Shown piece after piece: positions 6,704 through 60,089 of a DNA stretch of 64,000 bases (position 1 is the stretch's first letter; each line of letters opens with the position of its first letter). The position numbers were made by a program, and so were the translations under genes. The DNA comes from Escherichia coli (GTDB taxonomy: Bacteria; Pseudomonadota; Gammaproteobacteria; Enterobacterales; Enterobacteriaceae), in the NCBI RefSeq assembly GCF_016026235.1, contig NZ_CP065613.1. One strand, 5' to 3'. A model generated the notes under the pieces. It ran no database searches, was not told the DNA's origin, and worked only from the letters and a program-made list of their open reading frames with translations.

Positions 6704-6825
6704 GCAGGTGAATGCAACGTCAAGCGATGGGCGTTGCGCTCCATATTGTCTTACTTCCTTTTTTGAATTACTGCATAGCACAATTGATTCGTACGACGCC
6801 GACTTTGATGAGTCGGCTTTTTTTT
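6704..6825 (+). ncRNA. fnrS: FnrS small regulatory RNA
   Basis: Sequence GCAGGTGAATGCAACGTCAAGCGATGGGCG… ending in hairpin GCCGACTTTGATGAGTCGGC plus T8 matches my memory of FnrS; lies between zntB and dbpA as in K-12. Confidence 0.8.
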
Positions 6826-11126: not shown

Positions 11127-11315
11127 TCACGAGGACTGAAGTTTCTCGCAATTAAAATTTATCAGTTTTACTTTCTGCTCTCTGGAAACGCCTGCTTCTT
11201 TTTCCCCTGAGAGCATTTTTTCGCATTCTGATTTCGTTAGTTTTGTCTTTGAGTATCTTGTCCAGCTGGCAGGAGAACCACCTTCCTTTTCAATAGTGGC
11301 TGTAATTTTATACAT
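11127..11315 (-). CDS. Hypothetical phage protein (62 aa)
   Basis: ATG preceded by GGAGGTG; no recognisable motif. Confidence 0.4.
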   Translation of the reverse strand: MYKITATIEKEGGSPASWTRYSKTKLTKSECEKMLSGEKEAGVSREQKVKLINFNCEKLQSS

Positions 11316-17213: not shown

Positions 17214-17378
17214 AATGACATCCTCAAGTGATAAGTTAATTAACTCACCAGCAGAGGTGCTAATCTCATGGGTGGTGAGACGCACAGGGTTAGCACTACC
17301 GGTCACTCGAGAACCCGGCCAGCCTTGCGGCTGCCCCGCACGCCTCACCATAATTTGAATGTGGCTGTGCATTACGCA

Positions 17379-17402
17379 TAAAAAAACCGCTTCAGCGCGG
17401 TT
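17379..17402 (-). terminator. Rho-independent terminator (minus strand)
   Basis: Minus-strand read AACCGCGCTGAAGCGGTTTTTTT; lies inside the upstream extension of the Rha ORF. Confidence 0.45.
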
Positions 17403-17529
17403 ATGCGCTCGAGTAACTTTCGGGGTGCTAATCCCGGCACCCGTTTTATGAGGTGCAGGTGCACTATAATTCCACCCGTTCTGGTTTTCAATAGCTACAT
17501 TCAACATTTTCTCTTTCCTTTCATCACCG

Positions 17530-18852: not shown

Positions 18853-19272
18853 TTATTCCGGTGGGGGATTATCTTTAATCCTGCCTCTCAAATATTTTTC
18901 TACATACTCATCGATTTCTTTTAGCCGGACTTCAAATAGCTCAATCATTCGTTGTTGTTCTGAGCCCGGTAGCTGGTTAAACAACTCAAGAAGTTTTCGT
19001 TGGGATTCATTTAACCACAATTCAGAAGATTCCTGTTCTCCAAAGAGGAGCTCAGGAGGAGATATGCCAAGTGCCTTTCCCAATACGACAGCGTCATGTA
19101 CTCCAACATTTCTGCTGCCCGCCTCATAGTTACCTATACGCGATTGCGTCCATCCGCAGATTTCAGCAAGTTTTCCTTGAGATAAACCAAGCTTCTGCCT
19201 GCGCTCTTTAAGACGCATTGCAATTTTGTCATTGAGCCTACTAGCGGCAATTTTTTCGTTTTCTTTTTCCAT
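18853..19272 (-). CDS. Prophage repressor (HTH, CI/RacR-like)
   Basis: 139 aa; N-terminal XRE-type HTH (LGLSQGKLAEICGWTQSRIGNYEAG); divergent from a Cro-like gene. Confidence 0.7.
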   Translation of the reverse strand: MEKENEKIAASRLNDKIAMRLKERRQKLGLSQGKLAEICGWTQSRIGNYEAGSRNVGVHDAVVLGKALGISPPELLFGEQESSELWLNESQRKLLELFNQLPGSEQQRMIELFEVRLKEIDEYVEKYLRGRIKDNPPPE

Positions 19273-19368: not shown

Positions 19369-19611
19369 ATGAACAAAATTTCAACATATCGAAAACAGCT
19401 TGGGCTGTCTCAAAGACAACTTGCTGTTCAGTTAGGGTGGATACAAAGCCGACTGGCAAATTACGAAGCAAATTTTCGTACCCCTGGACTAGAGGAGTGC
19501 AGAAAAATTGTTTCTACCCTTAATCGGCTTGGCGCTCATTGTGGACTTGACGATGTATTCCCCCCAGACGGTAAGCATAGCGAAAACAGCATAGGAGCGG
19601 TTGATTCATGA
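19369..19611 (+). CDS. Cro-like HTH regulator (YdaS-like position)
   Basis: 80 aa with HTH (LGLSQRQLAVQLGWIQSRLANYE); first gene of the rightward operon. Confidence 0.6.
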   Translation: MNKISTYRKQLGLSQRQLAVQLGWIQSRLANYEANFRTPGLEECRKIVSTLNRLGAHCGLDDVFPPDGKHSENSIGAVDS

Positions 19612-20030
19612 AAATCAGGCATGAGCACATCGAATCAGTGTTGTTAGCCCTGGCAGCCGAAAAAGGGCAGGCGTGGGTCGCTAACGCAATTACTGAAGAA
19701 TATCTGCGCCAGGGGGGAGGTGAATTGTCTCTGACACCAGGCAAGGACTGGAATAATCAGCAGAACATCTATCATCGTTGGTTAAAAGGTGAAACGAAAG
19801 CGCAAAGGGAAAAAATTCAGAAACTGATCCCTGCGGTTCTGGCAATTCTTCCGCGCGAGCTGCGTCACCGACTCTGCATCTTCGATACCCTGGAACGCCG
19901 TGCATTACTGGCGGCGCAGGAAGCGTTGAGTACGGCAATTGATGCGCATGATGATGCAGTCCAGGCCGTTTACCGGAAAGCGCATTTCAGCGGCGGCGGG
20001 TCTTCCGACGATTCTGTCATTGTTCATTAA
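19608..20030 (+). CDS. YdaT-like protein (CII-position regulator)
   Basis: 140 aa, same length and position as Rac YdaT; 4-nt overlap with the cro-like gene. Confidence 0.55.
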   Translation: MKIRHEHIESVLLALAAEKGQAWVANAITEEYLRQGGGELSLTPGKDWNNQQNIYHRWLKGETKAQREKIQKLIPAVLAILPRELRHRLCIFDTLERRALLAAQEALSTAIDAHDDAVQAVYRKAHFSGGGSSDDSVIVH

Positions 20031-20093
20031 GCAAAAGTTTCCATGCTGTTTGTGCTTATTCTAAGCAACCGGGCAGCATCATACGGGGCAATT

Positions 20094-21242
20094 ATGGCCG
20101 CATTACCATACATGCAACTGTACATAGCTGATTACCTGGCTGACACCATGCATTTGTCAGCAGAGGAGCACGGCGCGTATTTGTTGCTGATGTTCAATTA
20201 CTGGCAAACAGGAAAGCCAATACCCAAAAACAGGTTGGCAAAAATTGCCCGTCTGACTAACGAGCGATGGGTTGATGTTGAACCATCCTTGCGGGAGTTT
20301 TTTTGTGATAACGGCGACGAATGGATGCATCTTCGGATTGAGGAAGATCTGGCATCTGTCAGAGAAAAATTAACCAAAAAATCAGCCGCAGGAAAAGCAT
20401 CTGTTCAGGCCAGAAGAAGCAGAAAGGAAGCAGATGTTCAAACAAAACAAGAGAGAAATTTAACAGGTGTTCAAACAGATGTTGGAGTGATGTTCGAACA
20501 TGATGCCAACACAAAGGCAACTAATAAAGATACAGATAAAGATCTAAAAACAGATCTAACCCATCCCAAACCCTTCCCTTCCGGAAGGGAGTTTCGGGAT
20601 TTTGTGGCTGGAGTGCTTGAGGGGAGATTATCTGGCGGTACTGCAGCGGAATTTTGTAATTCTGCGGTGGTTGCGTTGCAGGCTGCTGGCCTGGATGTCT
20701 GTCGTGAGTATCCGGTGCCAGAGCGTGGTGACGGTTGCGGAGGGCGGATTGATATCGTCGTGACTGACAGGAACGGTGTCCGGTGTGGGATCGAGCTTGA
20801 CCGAAATTCTCCGCGACAGAAATCACTGCTCAAAATCGGTGCTGTTGAAACCGGGATATGTGTCTTGCGGCGCAGTGATATCGCAAGGCACACCGAGCAG
20901 GGAATTCTGGTTATCGGTGGGGCTGTTCGCCAGAAAAAATTTGACCCGTTGTCAGTTGATCTGCCCGACTGGTTGCCAGAAACACTCTGGCATGAGTGGG
21001 TCCAGTTCAGGCAGGCATTGCGAAAACCGATTCGAACGGAGCAGGGCGCTAACGGGGCGATACGGGAACTGGAAAAATTCCGTCAGCAGGGTTTTACACC
21101 TGAGCAGGTGATTCGACACAGCATCGCCAATGAATACCAGGGTCTGTTCGCGCCGAAAGGTGTTCGGCCTGAGACGTTGCTCCGACAGGTTAACACCGTC
21201 TCGTTGCCGGACAGTGCGATCCCGCCAGGCTTCAGGGGGTAA
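20094..21242 (+). CDS. Replication initiation protein (O-position, YdaU-like)
   Basis: About 382 aa from the Met at 20094; directly precedes the DnaC-like loader; ORF extends to 20043. Confidence 0.5.
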   Translation: MAALPYMQLYIADYLADTMHLSAEEHGAYLLLMFNYWQTGKPIPKNRLAKIARLTNERWVDVEPSLREFFCDNGDEWMHLRIEEDLASVREKLTKKSAAGKASVQARRSRKEADVQTKQERNLTGVQTDVGVMFEHDANTKATNKDTDKDLKTDLTHPKPFPSGREFRDFVAGVLEGRLSGGTAAEFCNSAVVALQAAGLDVCREYPVPERGDGCGGRIDIVVTDRNGVRCGIELDRNSPRQKSLLKIGAVETGICVLRRSDIARHTEQGILVIGGAVRQKKFDPLSVDLPDWLPETLWHEWVQFRQALRKPIRTEQGANGAIRELEKFRQQGFTPEQVIRHSIANEYQGLFAPKGVRPETLLRQVNTVSLPDSAIPPGFRG

Positions 21243-21248
21243 CAGACC

Positions 21249-21995
21249 ATGAAAAATATTGCGACAGGAGGCGTTCTGGAGCGTATCCGCAGACTGACCC
21301 CACCACATGTAACCGCCCCATTCAGAACGGTTGCGGAGTGGCGCGAGTGGCAACTTGCTGAAGGCCAGAAACGTTGCGAGGAGATCAACCGCCTGAATCG
21401 TCAGTTGCGGGTGGAAAAAATCCTGAACCGCTCCGGCATCCAGCCGTTGCACCGGAAGTGTTCGTTTGCGAATTACCGGGCGCAGAACGACGGTCAGCGA
21501 CATGCACTGAGTCAGGCGAAATCCATAGCTGACGAACTGATGACAGGCTGTACGAATTTTGTGTTCAGCGGTAAGCCCGGCACCGGAAAAAATCATCTTG
21601 CAGCCGCGATTGGCAACCGGCTGATGGCGAAGGGGCGTAGCGTGATTATCGTCACCGTGTCCGATGTCATGAGCGTGTTGCATGAGAGCTACGACAACGG
21701 CAAATCCGGTGAAAAATTTTTACAGGAGCTTTGTGGTGTTGACCTGCTGGTCCTGGATGAAATTGGCATGCAGCGGGATACGAAAAACGAGCAGGTGGTA
21801 CTGAACCAGATTGTTGATCGCCGGACGGCATCGTTACGCGGTGTGGGGATGCTGACAAATATTAACCATGCAGCGATGAATACACTTCTCGGCGAGCGGG
21901 TGATGGATCGCATGGTCATGAACGGCGGGCGCTGGGTGAATTTTAACTGGGAGAGCTGGCGTCCGAATGTTAGCCATTCGAGGGTTGTTAAGTAG
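21249..21995 (+). CDS. DnaC-like helicase loader / replication protein (YdaV-like)
   Basis: 248 aa; Walker A GKPGTGKNHLA and Walker B LLVLDEIG. Confidence 0.8.
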   Translation: MKNIATGGVLERIRRLTPPHVTAPFRTVAEWREWQLAEGQKRCEEINRLNRQLRVEKILNRSGIQPLHRKCSFANYRAQNDGQRHALSQAKSIADELMTGCTNFVFSGKPGTGKNHLAAAIGNRLMAKGRSVIIVTVSDVMSVLHESYDNGKSGEKFLQELCGVDLLVLDEIGMQRDTKNEQVVLNQIVDRRTASLRGVGMLTNINHAAMNTLLGERVMDRMVMNGGRWVNFNWESWRPNVSHSRVVK

Positions 21996-24777: not shown

Positions 24778-25439
24778 CCACTATTACCAAAGAGCGACTG
24801 CAATGGCTGGCTAACATTTCTGGCCGCGATGATATTGACGATATAGACGGCGGTGAAATTCGTGAACTGGCGCTTATCGCTCTGGCATCACTGGAAGCAG
24901 AGCCTGTAGCGGAATGCATTGTTGAAGATGGGGGCATGTGTATTGACGGGTTCGGTGAGTATGTGGGTCACTCGCTGCCTGATGGAATGCATGAGCTTTA
25001 TGCTGCCCCGCGAATGCGACAACCTGATGGATGGAAAGCCGTAGCTGTAGCGTGGAAGGTGACGTTTACTCAAGTTGACCAGGAATCTAATACGTTCACT
25101 GCTATATATTTTGACAAAGCGGAAGTTGAGCGTTGGGTACGACTGCATAAAGCATGTGATTTTCGGGCAGATATAACACCGCTTTACGCAGCGCCGGCAG
25201 TGCCGGTTGCAGTAAACGACGACATGGCTTACGCATTCCATCACGCACTGTCAGATTCATCGCTTGGCTCTGATGAAATCGAAGAAATTAAAACCGGTTT
25301 GCGTGCTGCCTTTGCCAACGTCACTATCCAACCAGAGCCGATAGTGCCGGATGAAATCGGGCCAAACGATAGTAATACGTTTGATTATGTTGATGGCTGG
25401 AACGCCTGCCGCGCTGCCATGCTTAAGGGAGATAAATAA
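24774..25439 (+). CDS. Hypothetical phage protein (221 aa) with repeated LYAAP motif
   Basis: ORF translationally coupled on both sides. Confidence 0.4.
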   Translation: MTTITKERLQWLANISGRDDIDDIDGGEIRELALIALASLEAEPVAECIVEDGGMCIDGFGEYVGHSLPDGMHELYAAPRMRQPDGWKAVAVAWKVTFTQVDQESNTFTAIYFDKAEVERWVRLHKACDFRADITPLYAAPAVPVAVNDDMAYAFHHALSDSSLGSDEIEEIKTGLRAAFANVTIQPEPIVPDEIGPNDSNTFDYVDGWNACRAAMLKGDK

Positions 25440-25804
25440 TGATTAATCGAACCAAACTGGAGCACATTCTCGAATATGCCAGGCAGCAGAAATGTATTGG
25501 GCAACTTTGTAAAATTCCACCAGGAGATATGGTTGAAATCGTGGAAATGGCCATGCGTAAGGCTGGCAACTCTCCGGTAACTCCGGCTGGCTGGATAAGC
25601 TGTAGTGATGCAGTTCCTGCTGAATATTGCGATGTGATTCTTCTCGATGATCTCGGGAATGTATTCCCCGGTTCCTGGGATAAGGTTTTTTGCCCCACTC
25701 GTGGCGGGAATAAGATGGCTTTTGTGGACAAAGACGGCGTTGAAGTAGAGAGCTCAACTCACTGGATGCCGCTACCGGAACCACCGCAGGAGGTGAATCA
25801 ATGA
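25439..25804 (+). CDS. Hypothetical phage protein (121 aa), resembles the DUF551 family
   Basis: ORF; family call is from memory and weak. Confidence 0.35.
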   Translation: MINRTKLEHILEYARQQKCIGQLCKIPPGDMVEIVEMAMRKAGNSPVTPAGWISCSDAVPAEYCDVILLDDLGNVFPGSWDKVFCPTRGGNKMAFVDKDGVEVESSTHWMPLPEPPQEVNQ

Positions 25805-25883
25805 CCTGGCCTGAGGCATTCACCACGGTAGGAATTGCGATGGCGGTGGCGCTGGTGGTGTATTCGATTTGCCGTTGGGGTTA
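25801..25883 (+). CDS. Candidate 27-aa single-TM peptide
   Basis: ATGA overlap with the upstream stop; MTWPEAFTTVGIAMAVALVVYSICRWG; followed by a strong terminator. Confidence 0.25.
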
Positions 25884-25890
25884 ACAAACA

Positions 25891-25921
25891 AAAACCCCGG
25901 ATTGATGGTCCGGGGTTTTTG
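25891..25921 (+). terminator. Rho-independent terminator
   Basis: AAAACCCCGGATTGATGGTCCGGGGTTTTTG. Confidence 0.6.
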
Positions 25922-26258
25922 AAGGAAACAAAACAGAAACAGCAATTGCCGTTACCTGTTGTTACCATGGCAAGTAAACGTATCTCAGGCGAGCGCATTG
26001 CGCCGTTCTGACGCAGATAAACTAGCCTGGATAGATGGTGCTGGCAATAAAAAATAGCGTTTTCTTATCGGTGTCGGTAAGATTGCTGCGGGTGCTTGAG
26101 GCTGTCTGCCTCGGGCATGTCACTGTAAGGCAGACAGAGAAAAGCCCCAGTTAACATTACGCGTCCTGCAAGACGCTTAACATTAATCTGAGGCCCAATC
26201 TATGTCTCACAAATGTAGGTTAGCCTCTTACGTGCCGAAAGGCAAGGAGAAGCAGGCT

Positions 26259-26414
26259 ATGAAGCAGCAAAAGGCGATGTTAATCGCCCTGATCGTCATC
26301 TGTTTAACCGTCATTGTGACGGCACTGGTAACGAGGAAAGACCTCTGCGAGGTACGAATCCGAACCGGCCAGACGGAGGTCGCTGTCTTCGTAGACTACG
26401 AATCTAGAGAGTAA
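26259..26414 (+). CDS. Hok/Gef-family type I toxin
   Basis: 51 aa MKQQKAMLIALIVICLTVIVTALVTRKDLCEVRIRTGQTEVAVFVDYESRE; an in-frame upstream extension (26202) resembles a mok-like leader. Confidence 0.75.
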   Translation: MKQQKAMLIALIVICLTVIVTALVTRKDLCEVRIRTGQTEVAVFVDYESRE

Positions 26415-26692
26415 GAGTGACCAGGCGGGAGAGTAATCTCCCGCCACCTTTGATGTGTCAGGCATCCTCAACGCACCCGCACTTAACCCGTTTCGGCGGT
26501 TTTTTTTGTTGCGTGCTGAATACGCAGGGTGAAAAATAACCATATATTTGATTATATACACAACAAAAAATAAAAGTCATTGTACTTGCACATTAAACAA
26601 TCAAATATACGGCGTGAAATAAATGTTTTTCAGATTAATATTTTTGTCTCTATGTGGATATAACCGTTTGTACTTATAAACCTGGAGGCATC

Positions 26693-26905
26693 GTGGAAAA
26701 AATAAAGAAACTATTTAGTAGCAAATACGCAGTCATACGTCGTGATGACCTGTCAGTTATAGTCGAAATGGATTACTTCCCTGAAACCCCAAAATCAATA
26801 ATGTATCGTAATGGTCGAAAGGCAATTTTTTTACCGATGAGGGTAAGTGACATTATGGGAAATGATAAACTGCTGGATGAATTGCGAGTCAGAGCATCCT
26901 GTTAG
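26693..26905 (+). CDS. Hypothetical small phage protein
   Basis: GTG start after GGAGG; AT-rich promoter-like region upstream (26520..26680). Confidence 0.3.
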   Translation: MEKIKKLFSSKYAVIRRDDLSVIVEMDYFPETPKSIMYRNGRKAIFLPMRVSDIMGNDKLLDELRVRASC

Positions 26906-26976: not shown

Positions 26977-27576
26977 ATGGCGCATATACAACTGGTCAAA
27001 CAAACCTCTTCCGGATTACTTCTCCCGGCGACGCCGGAGAGTTGCGATTTTTTGCATCAAATCAAAATAGGTGAGTGGATACACGCAGACTTTAAGCGTG
27101 TGCGTAACTACGCATTCCACAAGCGTTTTTTCAAACTCCTGCAACTGGGATTTGATTACTGGACTCCGGTCGGTGGGGCGATCACGCCTCGCGAACGAAA
27201 ACTGGTATCAGGCTTCGTTGATTACCTGTGCGAATCAGTAGGTCGGGAACACACTCCAGCCCTGAGTGATGCCGCAGAGCAATACCTTAATACAGTTGCG
27301 ACATGCAGAACCCGGGATACGGCATTGCTAAAGTCGTTTGACGCTTTCCGCGAGTGGGTAACCATTCAGGCCGGATTTTACACCGAGCATATTTATCCTG
27401 ATGGTAGTCGTGGGCGCAGGGCAAAATCTATCGCATTTGCGAACATGGACGAAACCGAGTTTCAGCAGGTTTATAAATCTGTACTGAATGTGCTGTGGAA
27501 CTGGATCCTGTTCCGTAAATTTTCCTCTCCGGAACAAGTCGAAAATGTGGCCGCGCAGCTACTGGAGTTTGCGTAA
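26977..27576 (+). CDS. Hypothetical nin-region protein (199 aa), resembles DUF1367
   Basis: ORF; 1-nt-coupled to the downstream gene. Confidence 0.45.
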   Translation: MAHIQLVKQTSSGLLLPATPESCDFLHQIKIGEWIHADFKRVRNYAFHKRFFKLLQLGFDYWTPVGGAITPRERKLVSGFVDYLCESVGREHTPALSDAAEQYLNTVATCRTRDTALLKSFDAFREWVTIQAGFYTEHIYPDGSRGRRAKSIAFANMDETEFQQVYKSVLNVLWNWILFRKFSSPEQVENVAAQLLEFA

Positions 27577-27866
27577 TGGTGGATTTACGTAAAGCGGCGC
27601 GGGGGCAGATGTGCACCGTCAGAATTCCTGGCTACTGCAATCACGATCCGGAAACGTCTGTGCTGGCGCATTACCGACTGGCGGGAACGTGCGGAACAGC
27701 GACAAAACCACACGATATGCAGGCGGCGATTGCCTGTAGCTCATGCCACGATTTAATCGACGGGCGGGTAAAAACAAGCGATTACACCAAAGAAGAATTA
27801 CGCCTGATACATGCAGAAGGTGTTTTTCGCACGCAAGAAATCTGGAGAAAGGAAGGTTATTTATGA
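27576..27866 (+). CDS. Hypothetical nin-region protein (96 aa), resembles DUF1364/YbcO
   Basis: Cys/His-rich (CTVRIPGYCNHD…CSSCHD). Confidence 0.45.
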   Translation: MVDLRKAARGQMCTVRIPGYCNHDPETSVLAHYRLAGTCGTATKPHDMQAAIACSSCHDLIDGRVKTSDYTKEELRLIHAEGVFRTQEIWRKEGYL

Positions 27867-28417
27867 TTTACCCAACAAATACAGGCAAAAGCGGGGAACA
27901 CCTTCGTCTCACCACGCTGGAAAGTGTCTGGATTCAGGGAAAACTGCGCATGTGGGGGCGCTGGTCGTATATTGGCGGCGGTAAGACGGGGAATATGTTC
28001 AACCAGTTGTTGGCCTCTAAAAAGCTGACAAAAACGGCAATTAACGAGGCGCTCCGGAGGATGAAAAAAGCAGGTCTGGACAAACCTGAACTTGAGGCTT
28101 TTTTGCGGGATATGATCAACGGCAAGCAAAAAAGCTGGCTGGTGCATTGTACTGACGCAGAGGCGTTATGCATTGATCGGGTGATTAGTGAAGTGCTGGC
28201 AGAACACCCAGGATTGATTTGTATCCTCCGGCAACGATATGAAGGGAGTGGGATGACTAAGCGAAAAATGGCTGAATTGCTGAATGATTCACACCCTGAG
28301 TGGTGTTATCGGACGTGTTGCAGTCGGGTTGATGTATGGCTAAATCTTGCTGAATATATGCTCTATCTACCGATGCGTGATGCATTCTCTTCCGGGGATC
28401 TAAAAACCGTCTGTTGA
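27863..28417 (+). CDS. Putative late-gene antiterminator (Q-like)
   Basis: 184 aa from ATG at 27863 with SD AGGAAGG; position upstream of pR'-like promoter, tRNAs and lysis genes; Cys-rich C-terminus. Confidence 0.45.
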   Translation: MIYPTNTGKSGEHLRLTTLESVWIQGKLRMWGRWSYIGGGKTGNMFNQLLASKKLTKTAINEALRRMKKAGLDKPELEAFLRDMINGKQKSWLVHCTDAEALCIDRVISEVLAEHPGLICILRQRYEGSGMTKRKMAELLNDSHPEWCYRTCCSRVDVWLNLAEYMLYLPMRDAFSSGDLKTVC

Positions 28418-28689
28418 CTCAATCTGTTATCCGGGGCTATATTCCTCACGCGCCAGCAAAATCTGGCGTCGGGATTGGCGTCCCGGATGTTTACGGAGCG
28501 ATATGAGACGCGCCCGCGTCTTTTTTCATATCGTTTGCACAGTCTCATTCGCGATTTATGGCGGGCTGTGTGGGGGAGCCGAAAGGCTCGCCGGTTTCCG
28601 TACCCGGTTACGCCAACCCTGCACAGTTCGCCACCAGTTCGATTGGCGTCGTCGGTGGCGATAATTTCCAAATGTACGGAGTTATCGTT

Positions 28690-29455: not shown

Positions 29456-29532
29456 GGCCCTTTAGCTCAGTTGGTCAGAGCGAGCGACTCATAATCGCCA
29501 GGTCGCTGGTTCAAGTCCAGCAAGGGCCACCA
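29456..29532 (+). tRNA. tRNA with anticodon CAU (Ile2/Met-like, ileZ-type)
   Basis: Cloverleaf by eye: acceptor GGCCCTT/AAGGGCC, anticodon loop CTCATAA, T-arm GCTGGTTCAAGTCCAGC, 3' CCA encoded. Confidence 0.8.
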
Positions 29533-29533
29533 A

Positions 29534-29610
29534 CCACCACTAGCTCATCCGGATAGAGCATCAACCTTCTAAGTTGACGGTGCGAGGTTCGAGTCCTCGG
29601 TGGTGGGCCA
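29534..29610 (+). tRNA. tRNA-Arg (anticodon UCU) with atypical 5' C-start acceptor stem
   Basis: Acceptor CCACCAC/GTGGTGG, anticodon loop CTTCTAA, T-arm CGAGGTTCGAGTCCTCG, CCA encoded. Confidence 0.65.
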
Positions 29611-29612
29611 GC

Positions 29613-29688
<76 letters not shown>

Positions 29689-29691
29689 TAT

Positions 29692-29766
<75 letters not shown>

Positions 29767-59862: not shown

Positions 59863-60089
59863 TGAATAAATCCTTTAGTTATTTTATTTGCCTTTTATCC
59901 CCATTTCGGGGAGTGAAAACATCCTAAAGGAGAAGTTCAGTTAGCCGATAAATATCATTTGTTACGCCTTAAGTAAAACCTTAATCAAAAAATTCCTCTG
60001 AAATGATAATAAGTCTGGTGAATGTATCGAAGATAATACATACAAAATAAAAATTATACTTTTAATTTTCTATACGTTATTCTGCGCGG

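Follow-up and report, generated by a model that had tools for sequence, protein, structure and literature searches.

The segment spanning positions 26090 to 26506 (plus strand) of the window—i.e., the entire 64,000-nucleotide (nt) stretch of Escherichia coli DNA analyzed here—very probably represents a hok/mok/sok type I toxin-antitoxin module that is complete and belongs to the hokW/hokD subgroup. The first-pass annotation of this DNA had proposed a hok-type type I toxin locus inside the prophage, and that identification is fully supported by the evidence presented below. Loci of this kind are already known, having been annotated and experimentally characterized elsewhere, and the window contains an ordinary complete copy. 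Putative counterparts of all regulatory parts of the R1 model could be recognized in the locus at the sequence level (Table 1). Its functional role, and specifically a contribution to lysis, is clearly less certain than its identification.

Table 1. Features of the hok locus and of the surrounding prophage, ordered by window position
Feature	Position	Strand	Remarks
RalA (antitoxin of RalR)	11131–11309	+	same prophage; Rfam
isrK/C4 antisense module (one of two, on opposite strands)	17268–17456	−	Rfam
cI-like repressor	18853–19272	−	window ORFs and family searches
cro-like	19369–19611	+	window ORFs and family searches
ydaT-like	19608–20030	+	window ORFs and family searches
ydaU-like, intact	20043–21242	+	window ORFs and family searches
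ydaV-like ATPase	21249–21995	+	window ORFs and family searches
nin-type small genes	between 21995 and 25439	+	window ORFs and family searches
DUF551 protein	25439–25804	+	window ORFs and family searches
27-aa hydrophobic ORF, MTWPEAFTTVGIAMAVALVVYSICRWG	25801–25884	+	overlaps the DUF551 stop codon (ATGA)
Bidirectional terminator, AAAAACCCCGG...CCGGGGTTTTT	25889–25921	both	perfect 13-bp stem separating the small ORF from hok
−10 box of the hok/mok promoter, TAAGAT	26078–26083	+	predicted; start at ~26089–26090
Predicted full-length hok/mok mRNA, ~417 nt	26090–26506	+	fold and conservation
tac element, GGGTGCTTGAGG	26090–26101	+	mRNA 5′ end; predicted partner fbi in full-length RNA, ucb once the 3′ end is trimmed
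5′ stem-loop of hok mRNA (hairpin 1)	26102–26137	+	arms CTGTCTGCCT (26102–26111) and AGGCAGACAG (26128–26137)
Predicted Sok antisense RNA, 71 nt	26210→26140	−	coordinates transferred from the sokW misc_RNA of 933W
ucb/anti-SD box, AAGCCCCAG	26142–26150	+	predicted to pair with the mok SD in full-length RNA and with tac in truncated RNA
mok Shine-Dalgarno (SD), GAGG	26190–26193	+	8 nt 5′ of the mok ATG; invariant in 57 loci
Sok-target hairpin	26197–26221	+	9-bp stem, 7-nt loop CUCACAA (YUNR-type CUCA start); holds the mok AUG
mok reading frame	26202–26414	+	70 codons, in frame with hok, common stop codon
Predicted sok promoter	26217–26245	−	−35 TTGCCT (26245→26240), 17-nt spacer, −10 TAACCT (26222→26217)
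hok Shine-Dalgarno, AAGGAG	26244–26249	+	9 nt 5′ of the hok ATG; invariant in alignments A1 and A2
hok toxin gene	26259–26414	+	51 aa; Pfam, HokW identity, RefSeq annotation of an identical segment
Hairpin 3′ of the stop codon, GGCGGGAGA/TCTCCCGCC, loop GTAA	26424–26445	+	perfect 9-bp inverted repeat
fbi element, CCTCAACGCACCC	26466–26481	+	complementarity reaching GCA; predicted to pair with tac; invariant in intact loci
Predicted terminator, CCGU-UUCG-GCGG then U8	26488–26506	+	fold of mRNA
PHROG 1813 protein	26693–26905	+	window ORFs and family searches
NinB/DUF1367	26977–27576	+	window ORFs and family searches
DUF1364	27576–27866	+	window ORFs and family searches
Q-like DUF1133	ends at 28417	+	window ORFs and family searches
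isrK/C4 antisense module (second of two)	28437–28638	+	Rfam
Four-tRNA cluster	29456–29763	+	downstream of the Q-like gene

The toxin gene and its overlapping mok frame

The 51-aa Hok/Gef-like toxin previously noted in this region was confirmed: its product matches the Pfam family HOK_GEF (PF01848) over the full length of the model (positions 1 to 42 of 42; E = 1.3e-22) and PHROG 251, "MokW-like host killing" (E = 1.3e-32), whereas it scored 53 bits against the NCBIfam Hok subfamily HMM, i.e., below the curated cut-off of 73. The protein is identical to HokW at 49 of 51 residues (96%), compared with 44% identity to Hok of R1. A 601-bp segment carrying hok is 100% identical in E. coli VL40, the sole complete E. 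coli genome with such a copy, and in RefSeq only the hok coding sequence is annotated within it (WP_000813259.1, "Hok/Gef family protein"); mok, Sok, and the mRNA elements described below could be added to that annotation. More generally, hok-like DNA was detected in 4,720 of the 5,426 complete E. coli genomes, at a median of 2 and a maximum of 9 places per genome.

Upstream of hok and in frame with it, a leader had been recognized in the first-pass annotation. We found this leader to be mok, a 70-aa open reading frame (ORF) starting with the ATG at 26202, and this start codon is kept in 56 of 57 homologous loci. Equivalents of mok have been annotated as the mokW coding sequence in 933W and as mokC in K-12, and GAGG is likewise the mok SD sequence in R1 (PMC9841398).

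One further feature of the coding sequence concerns RNA editing. The codon of Hok Tyr47 together with the following base (UAC + G; 26397–26400, plus strand) forms UACG, the motif at which TadA carries out A-to-I editing; every aligned locus has it unchanged. For K-12 hokD mRNA, editing of the equivalent Tyr codon to Cys has been reported at a level of ~6% (PMC12214031). A tRNA-Arg-like stem-loop around the Tyr47 UACG was considered as well and rejected, local folding lending it no support.

The mRNA leader and its hairpins

The leader of the module matched the Rfam family RF01794 at 26090–26264 on the plus strand, along the entire model (positions 1 to 157 of 157), with 118.4 bits (gathering score, 59) and an E value of 2.4e-26. 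In view of this match, the Pfam and PHROG matches, and the fold energy given below, a chance origin of these features can be dismissed. As this family is named "sok," the match could be mistaken for an antitoxin encoded on the plus strand; we rejected this reading because the alignment runs along the sense strand and includes both the mok AUG and the hok AUG. The hit thus marks the hok mRNA leader, with the antisense RNA lying opposite to it.

Two hairpins had been placed at 26101–26140 and near 26170 in the first-pass annotation, and both are present within a few bases of these positions. Hairpin 1 belongs to helix 1 of the Rfam model, whereas hairpin 2 (arms GCGTC at 26161–26165 and GACGC at 26172–26176) forms the tip of the hairpin that is common to the hok leader and the antisense Sok RNA; both are conserved, in keeping with the proposal that they are elements of hok mRNA and Sok. 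The accompanying claim that they overlap the antisense RNA holds for hairpin 2, which lies inside Sok, but not for hairpin 1, which is situated 5′ of the Sok-complementary stretch.

Predicted fold switch of the hok/mok mRNA

The predicted −10 box of the hok/mok promoter coincides with a T-A-x-x-A-T hexamer that each of the 12 loci in alignment A1 has at the same place, R1-type hok and hokC among them. We detected no convincing −35 box, and a consensus scan missed this promoter, which is accordingly weak or unproven. Folding of the 417-nt mRNA gave a minimum free energy (MFE) of −164.4 kcal/mol (z = −5.97 versus shuffled sequences). At its 3′ end, the terminator was missed in its window version by a terminator scan. 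In most relatives, the terminator has a stronger CCCGC-UUCG-GCGGG stem followed by U5–6; the window and the three relatives closest to it carry a G→T change and a C→T change, the latter confined to these loci, which have cut the stem from 5 to 4 bp (one of them G-U) and extended the U-run to 8 residues.

According to the R1 model, as summarized in PMC9841398, a tac/fbi lock forms on the full-length mRNA while ucb holds the mok SD; 3′ trimming then gives rise to tac/ucb and SD/dcb stems, enabling translation and Sok binding, and RNase III degrades the mRNA-Sok duplex. In the predicted folds of the window RNA, both tac/fbi closure and an alternative trimmed fold as in this model are present. More specifically, tac (26090–26101) pairs with 26466–26478 of fbi in the full-length RNA with a probability of 0.96 to 1.0, the helix comprising twelve pairs and a single bulge; the mok SD, in turn, is held by ucb through pairs 26144–46/26192–94 and 26148–50/26188–90, all invariant in the 57 loci. 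When the 3′ end was cut at 26463, thereby removing fbi, the 5′ end re-paired with 26142–26148 (tac/ucb) with a probability of 0.61, and the SD region formed a small stem with 26204–26209 (SD/downstream-box stem). The Sok-target hairpin is the MFE structure of the isolated segment (−13.3 kcal/mol) and identical to the Rfam consensus helix; within the whole truncated RNA, its probability is ~0.1, such that this step of the switch is only partly reproduced. It is this trimmed conformation that the Rfam covariance model, matched in full at 118 bits, describes. By analogy with R1 (PMC9841398), the hairpin at 26424–26445 is likely the 3′ protective stem of the trimmed mRNA. A long-range helix between 26218–26231 and 26412–26423 was also considered as ucb/dcb and rejected, as ucb is the anti-SD box at 26142–26150 (PMC9841398).

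Conservation and covariation of the fold

For the mapped structure, 95.7% of the pair cells were kept in 57 distinct homologous loci, whereas only 33 to 41% were kept in a control in which partners were slid by 1 to 3 columns. Changes on both sides were seen for 16 pairs. One pair of the 5′ hairpin covaries (alignment columns 20/52), being A-U in 38 loci and G-C in 18, and three pairs of the hairpin at 26424–26445 show compensatory changes. For the tac-fbi helix, 100% of the cells were kept but the helix is invariant in the 57-locus set, hence no covariation can be drawn from that set; comparing the window with an R1-type locus by hand, we observed a coupled change from U-A to C-G at tac position 4 and its partner in fbi. 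Double substitutions that leave the structure intact, as seen across the 57 loci, suggest that the RNA fold is still under selection.

The antisense Sok RNA and its promoter

A Sok antisense RNA that is complementary to the mok start region and has its own promoter is predicted for the locus. Its coordinates were transferred from 933W, in which the position of the locus equals the window position minus 24581, an offset that is exact in alignment A1. Upon folding, the predicted RNA (−30.7 kcal/mol; z = −5.07) consists of a ~16-nt single-stranded 5′ tail, a long hairpin, and a terminal UUUU. It is identical to SokW at 64 of 71 positions, and six of the seven differences fall within the 5′ tail (first 16 nt).

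The consensus scan called neither the sok promoter, which is weak by consensus, nor the sok terminator, and having been missed in this way, both signals were assigned by homology to sokW, for which they have been mapped. The stretch that begins at 26213 and reaches the hok start, covering the sok promoter, is identical in hokW/sokW of 933W. In the hokW-sokW system, antitoxin activity was lost when exactly this −10 box was replaced (PMC8621323; primers YO-421/422). The −35 box of sok also overlaps, on the opposite strand, the hok SD.

Among the 57 loci, which are otherwise roughly 90 to 99% identical, the stretch from 26192 to 26214 (Sok 5′ tail and mok codons 1 to 5) is the most variable transcribed part, with 19 variants. 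Divergence of copies under pressure to avoid cross-talk would produce such a pattern. Variants of the 5′ hairpin, the Sok tail, and the Hok C terminus occur in differing combinations across loci, which suggests recombination between hok copies.

Position of the module in the prophage

The prophage is lambda-like, and the hok locus has its replication genes on one side and its late-gene activator on the other; the cro, ydaU, ydaV, NinB, and Q-like ORFs all run in the same direction as hok. The same slot holds hok in phages Rac-SA53 and Rac 442/2, where the order is annotated as mok-hok-rem-irsA-ybcO-Q. Rfam matches flanking the prophage were found for FnrS (at 6704) and MicC (at 60087), positions that presumably place it at the Rac (ttcA) site, judging from the K-12 map.

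The prophage as a whole was absent from the 5,426 complete E. coli genomes; the best match, VL40, covered 63% of the region from 14 to 38 kb at 97% identity. The window and VL40 align only in segments (96 to 99% identity), and VL40 has features that the window lacks, namely, IS600 in recE, a split ydaU, ipaH, and a yecD/aspS flank. VL40 annotation was therefore used for 23.7 to 29.8 kb only and was checked against the window's own ORFs.

The 27-aa hydrophobic ORF is found upstream of hok and on the same strand in 52 of ~92 related loci, including that of 933W, and so apparently moves together with the hok module. No match to this ORF was obtained in PHROG or PADLOC.

Proposed mode of action and alternative roles

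By homology with R1 and hokW-sokW, a weak promoter would give rise to a stable ~417-nt mRNA. In the full-length RNA, tac would be paired with fbi and the anti-SD box (26144–26150) would cover the mok ribosome-binding site, because of which this RNA would be neither translated nor bound by Sok. Slow 3′-exonucleolytic trimming up to the hairpin at 26424–26445 would strip off fbi, whereupon the 5′ end would re-pair with 26142–26148 and free the mok start. As long as the unstable 71-nt Sok is made, its 5′ tail would pair across the mok start and the resulting duplex would be destroyed. Once Sok synthesis stops, mok would be translated and hok along with it through translational coupling, leading to 51-aa Hok in the inner membrane and to membrane collapse. 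Parts of the R1 mechanism may not apply here, given that RNase III and Hfq are only partly required in hokW-sokW (PMC8621323).

The most likely trigger in the present case would be prophage induction, resulting in earlier membrane damage and lysis, as for hokW-sokW; prophage stabilization or exclusion of other phages may be side effects. By analogy, help with lysis upon induction is the best-supported role for the hokW/hokD subgroup. Takada et al. (2021; PMC8621323) found HokW to be toxic, located in the inner membrane, and counteracted by sokW, and the window Hok, which is 96% identical to it, may show the same toxicity and the same neutralization by Sok. After induction, hokW-sokW brought about faster growth arrest and lysis and doubled phage release, whereas its deletion delayed growth arrest and halved phage release (PMC8621323). 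In the same study, sokW RNA was gone after mitomycin C, and HokW appeared approximately an hour before the endolysin in a RecA-dependent manner (PMC8621323).

The module could instead be functional with prophage addiction or abortive infection (both proposed in the first-pass annotation), rather than lysis help, as its main role, a reading that we regard as unlikely but deserving of consideration. R1 hok/sok gives post-segregational killing (cited in PMC8621323), whereas chromosomal hokA, hokB, and hokC reportedly gave none when tested (summarized in bioRxiv 10.1101/2025.08.07.668861). A recent survey reports hok genes to be approximately four-fold enriched in prophages; hok has also been reported as not enriched near defence systems. 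On a high-copy plasmid, R1 hok/sok lowered T4 plating by 42% (cited in PMC8621323), the only case in which phage exclusion is reported, and an infecting phage shutting off transcription would deplete the unstable Sok. However, no PADLOC model matches the window Hok, such that the abortive-infection module suggested in the first-pass annotation gained no support from this source. Moreover, for the hokW/hokD subgroup, the case for addiction or abortive infection comes from R1 data only, and the sole functional data for a near-identical locus describe a pro-phage effect on induction (PMC8621323).

That the locus might be a decayed silent remnant comparable to the chromosomal hok genes of K-12, its toxin ORF conserved by hitch-hiking and the module unregulated, is highly improbable: K-12 hokA, hokC, hokD, and hokE are indeed regarded as inactivated (PMC12214031), both promoters of the window locus are weak by consensus, and its terminator stem is weakened, but every element lost from K-12 hokD is present in the window, there is no insertion sequence (IS), the promoter-to-start sequence is the same as in the functional sokW/hokW, and structure-preserving double substitutions have occurred across the 57 loci.

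We further propose, tentatively and with rather little confidence, that the module acts as an induction sensor and, in addition, that the hypervariable Sok 5′ tail could keep the hok/sok copies of a genome from cross-talking. Flanking genes are co-stranded with hok in every related locus in which they were recognized; hok is sense to the early-right operon in the window and sense to the attR-end gene block in 933W. In the usual lambdoid layout, the latter block would come to lie downstream of pL only after excision and circularization. With hok sense to early transcription, the sok promoter would fire head-on into induced transcription and be occluded. The gene order thus suggests a simple explanation for Sok loss on prophage induction, and it could account for the RecA-dependent loss of sokW RNA, the cause of which Takada et al. 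left open (PMC8621323). Given the strong terminator at 25889–25921 upstream of hok, such occlusion would need antitermination in the window prophage.

Comparison with known hok systems

The hok family has served as a textbook case since the 1980s, and a 93%-identical locus has been experimentally characterized, such that the window copy adds little to what is known of these systems. That closest characterized relative is hokW-mokW-sokW of the Stx2 phages 933W and Sp5/VT2-Sakai, which shares 93% nt identity with the window over ~405 nt, the same mok frame, and the same 27-aa ORF upstream. HokW ends in EK and the window Hok in RE, these being the sole differences between the two proteins. Relative to 933W, the window carries six substitutions in the Sok 5′ recognition tail and the matching mok codons 2 to 5, and one pair of the 5′ hairpin is G-C in the window but A-U in 933W (compensated). 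A stretch of ~187 nt containing the terminator at 25889–25921 is present in the window and absent from 933W, in which the small ORF runs into the hokW −10 box. The two modules also differ in position: that of the window lies in the nin region upstream of NinB and Q, whereas that of 933W lies in the attR-proximal arm.

R1 hok/mok/sok shares the architecture of the window locus, consisting of tac, a 5′ hairpin, ucb, the GAGG mok SD, an in-frame mok, the hok SD, a hairpin after the stop codon, fbi, and a terminator, and the predicted conformational switch is the same. The layout of the sok promoter is likewise the same (TTGCGC-17-TATCCT in the R1 type; TTGCCT-17-TAACCT in the window). In contrast, nt similarity is detectable only around the mok/hok start; the 5′ hairpin of R1 is longer than that of the window and its Sok hairpin shorter. 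R1 hok/sok also resides on a different replicon, its proven role being plasmid post-segregational killing.

K-12 hokC (gef)/mokC/sokC is 74% identical to the window at the nt level over the leader and coding sequence. In K-12, mokC is annotated in frame and the sokC noncoding RNA lies antisense across the mokC start, i.e., at the same relative position as the window Sok, whereas its Sok hairpin is shorter than that of the window; IS186 is inserted in the hairpin after the stop codon, and fbi has been lost. We observed that K-12 hokC and a hokD-like locus on an IncY plasmid carry IS186/IS421 at the identical base (between ...TCCC and ATAAGCGCTAAC...), within the 3′ arm of the GC-rich hairpin that follows the stop codon (A1 columns ~425 to 440), with fbi removed. 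An identical site in two different hok loci suggests an insertion hot spot.

K-12 hokD (relF), located in the Qin cryptic prophage, is 92% identical to the window at the nt level from the hok SD to the terminator, and its protein differs from the window Hok in five C-terminal residues and is otherwise identical. A rem-like gene lies downstream of hok in related Rac-type phages, as is the case for K-12 hokD. The K-12 locus aligns only to 26245–26505, however, and has relBE in place of tac, the 5′ hairpin, ucb, sok, and the mok start. None of the lesions of K-12 hokD, hokC, or the IncY copy is found in the window locus, which thus represents the intact counterpart of the truncated K-12 hokD and may serve as a reference for what the latter has lost.
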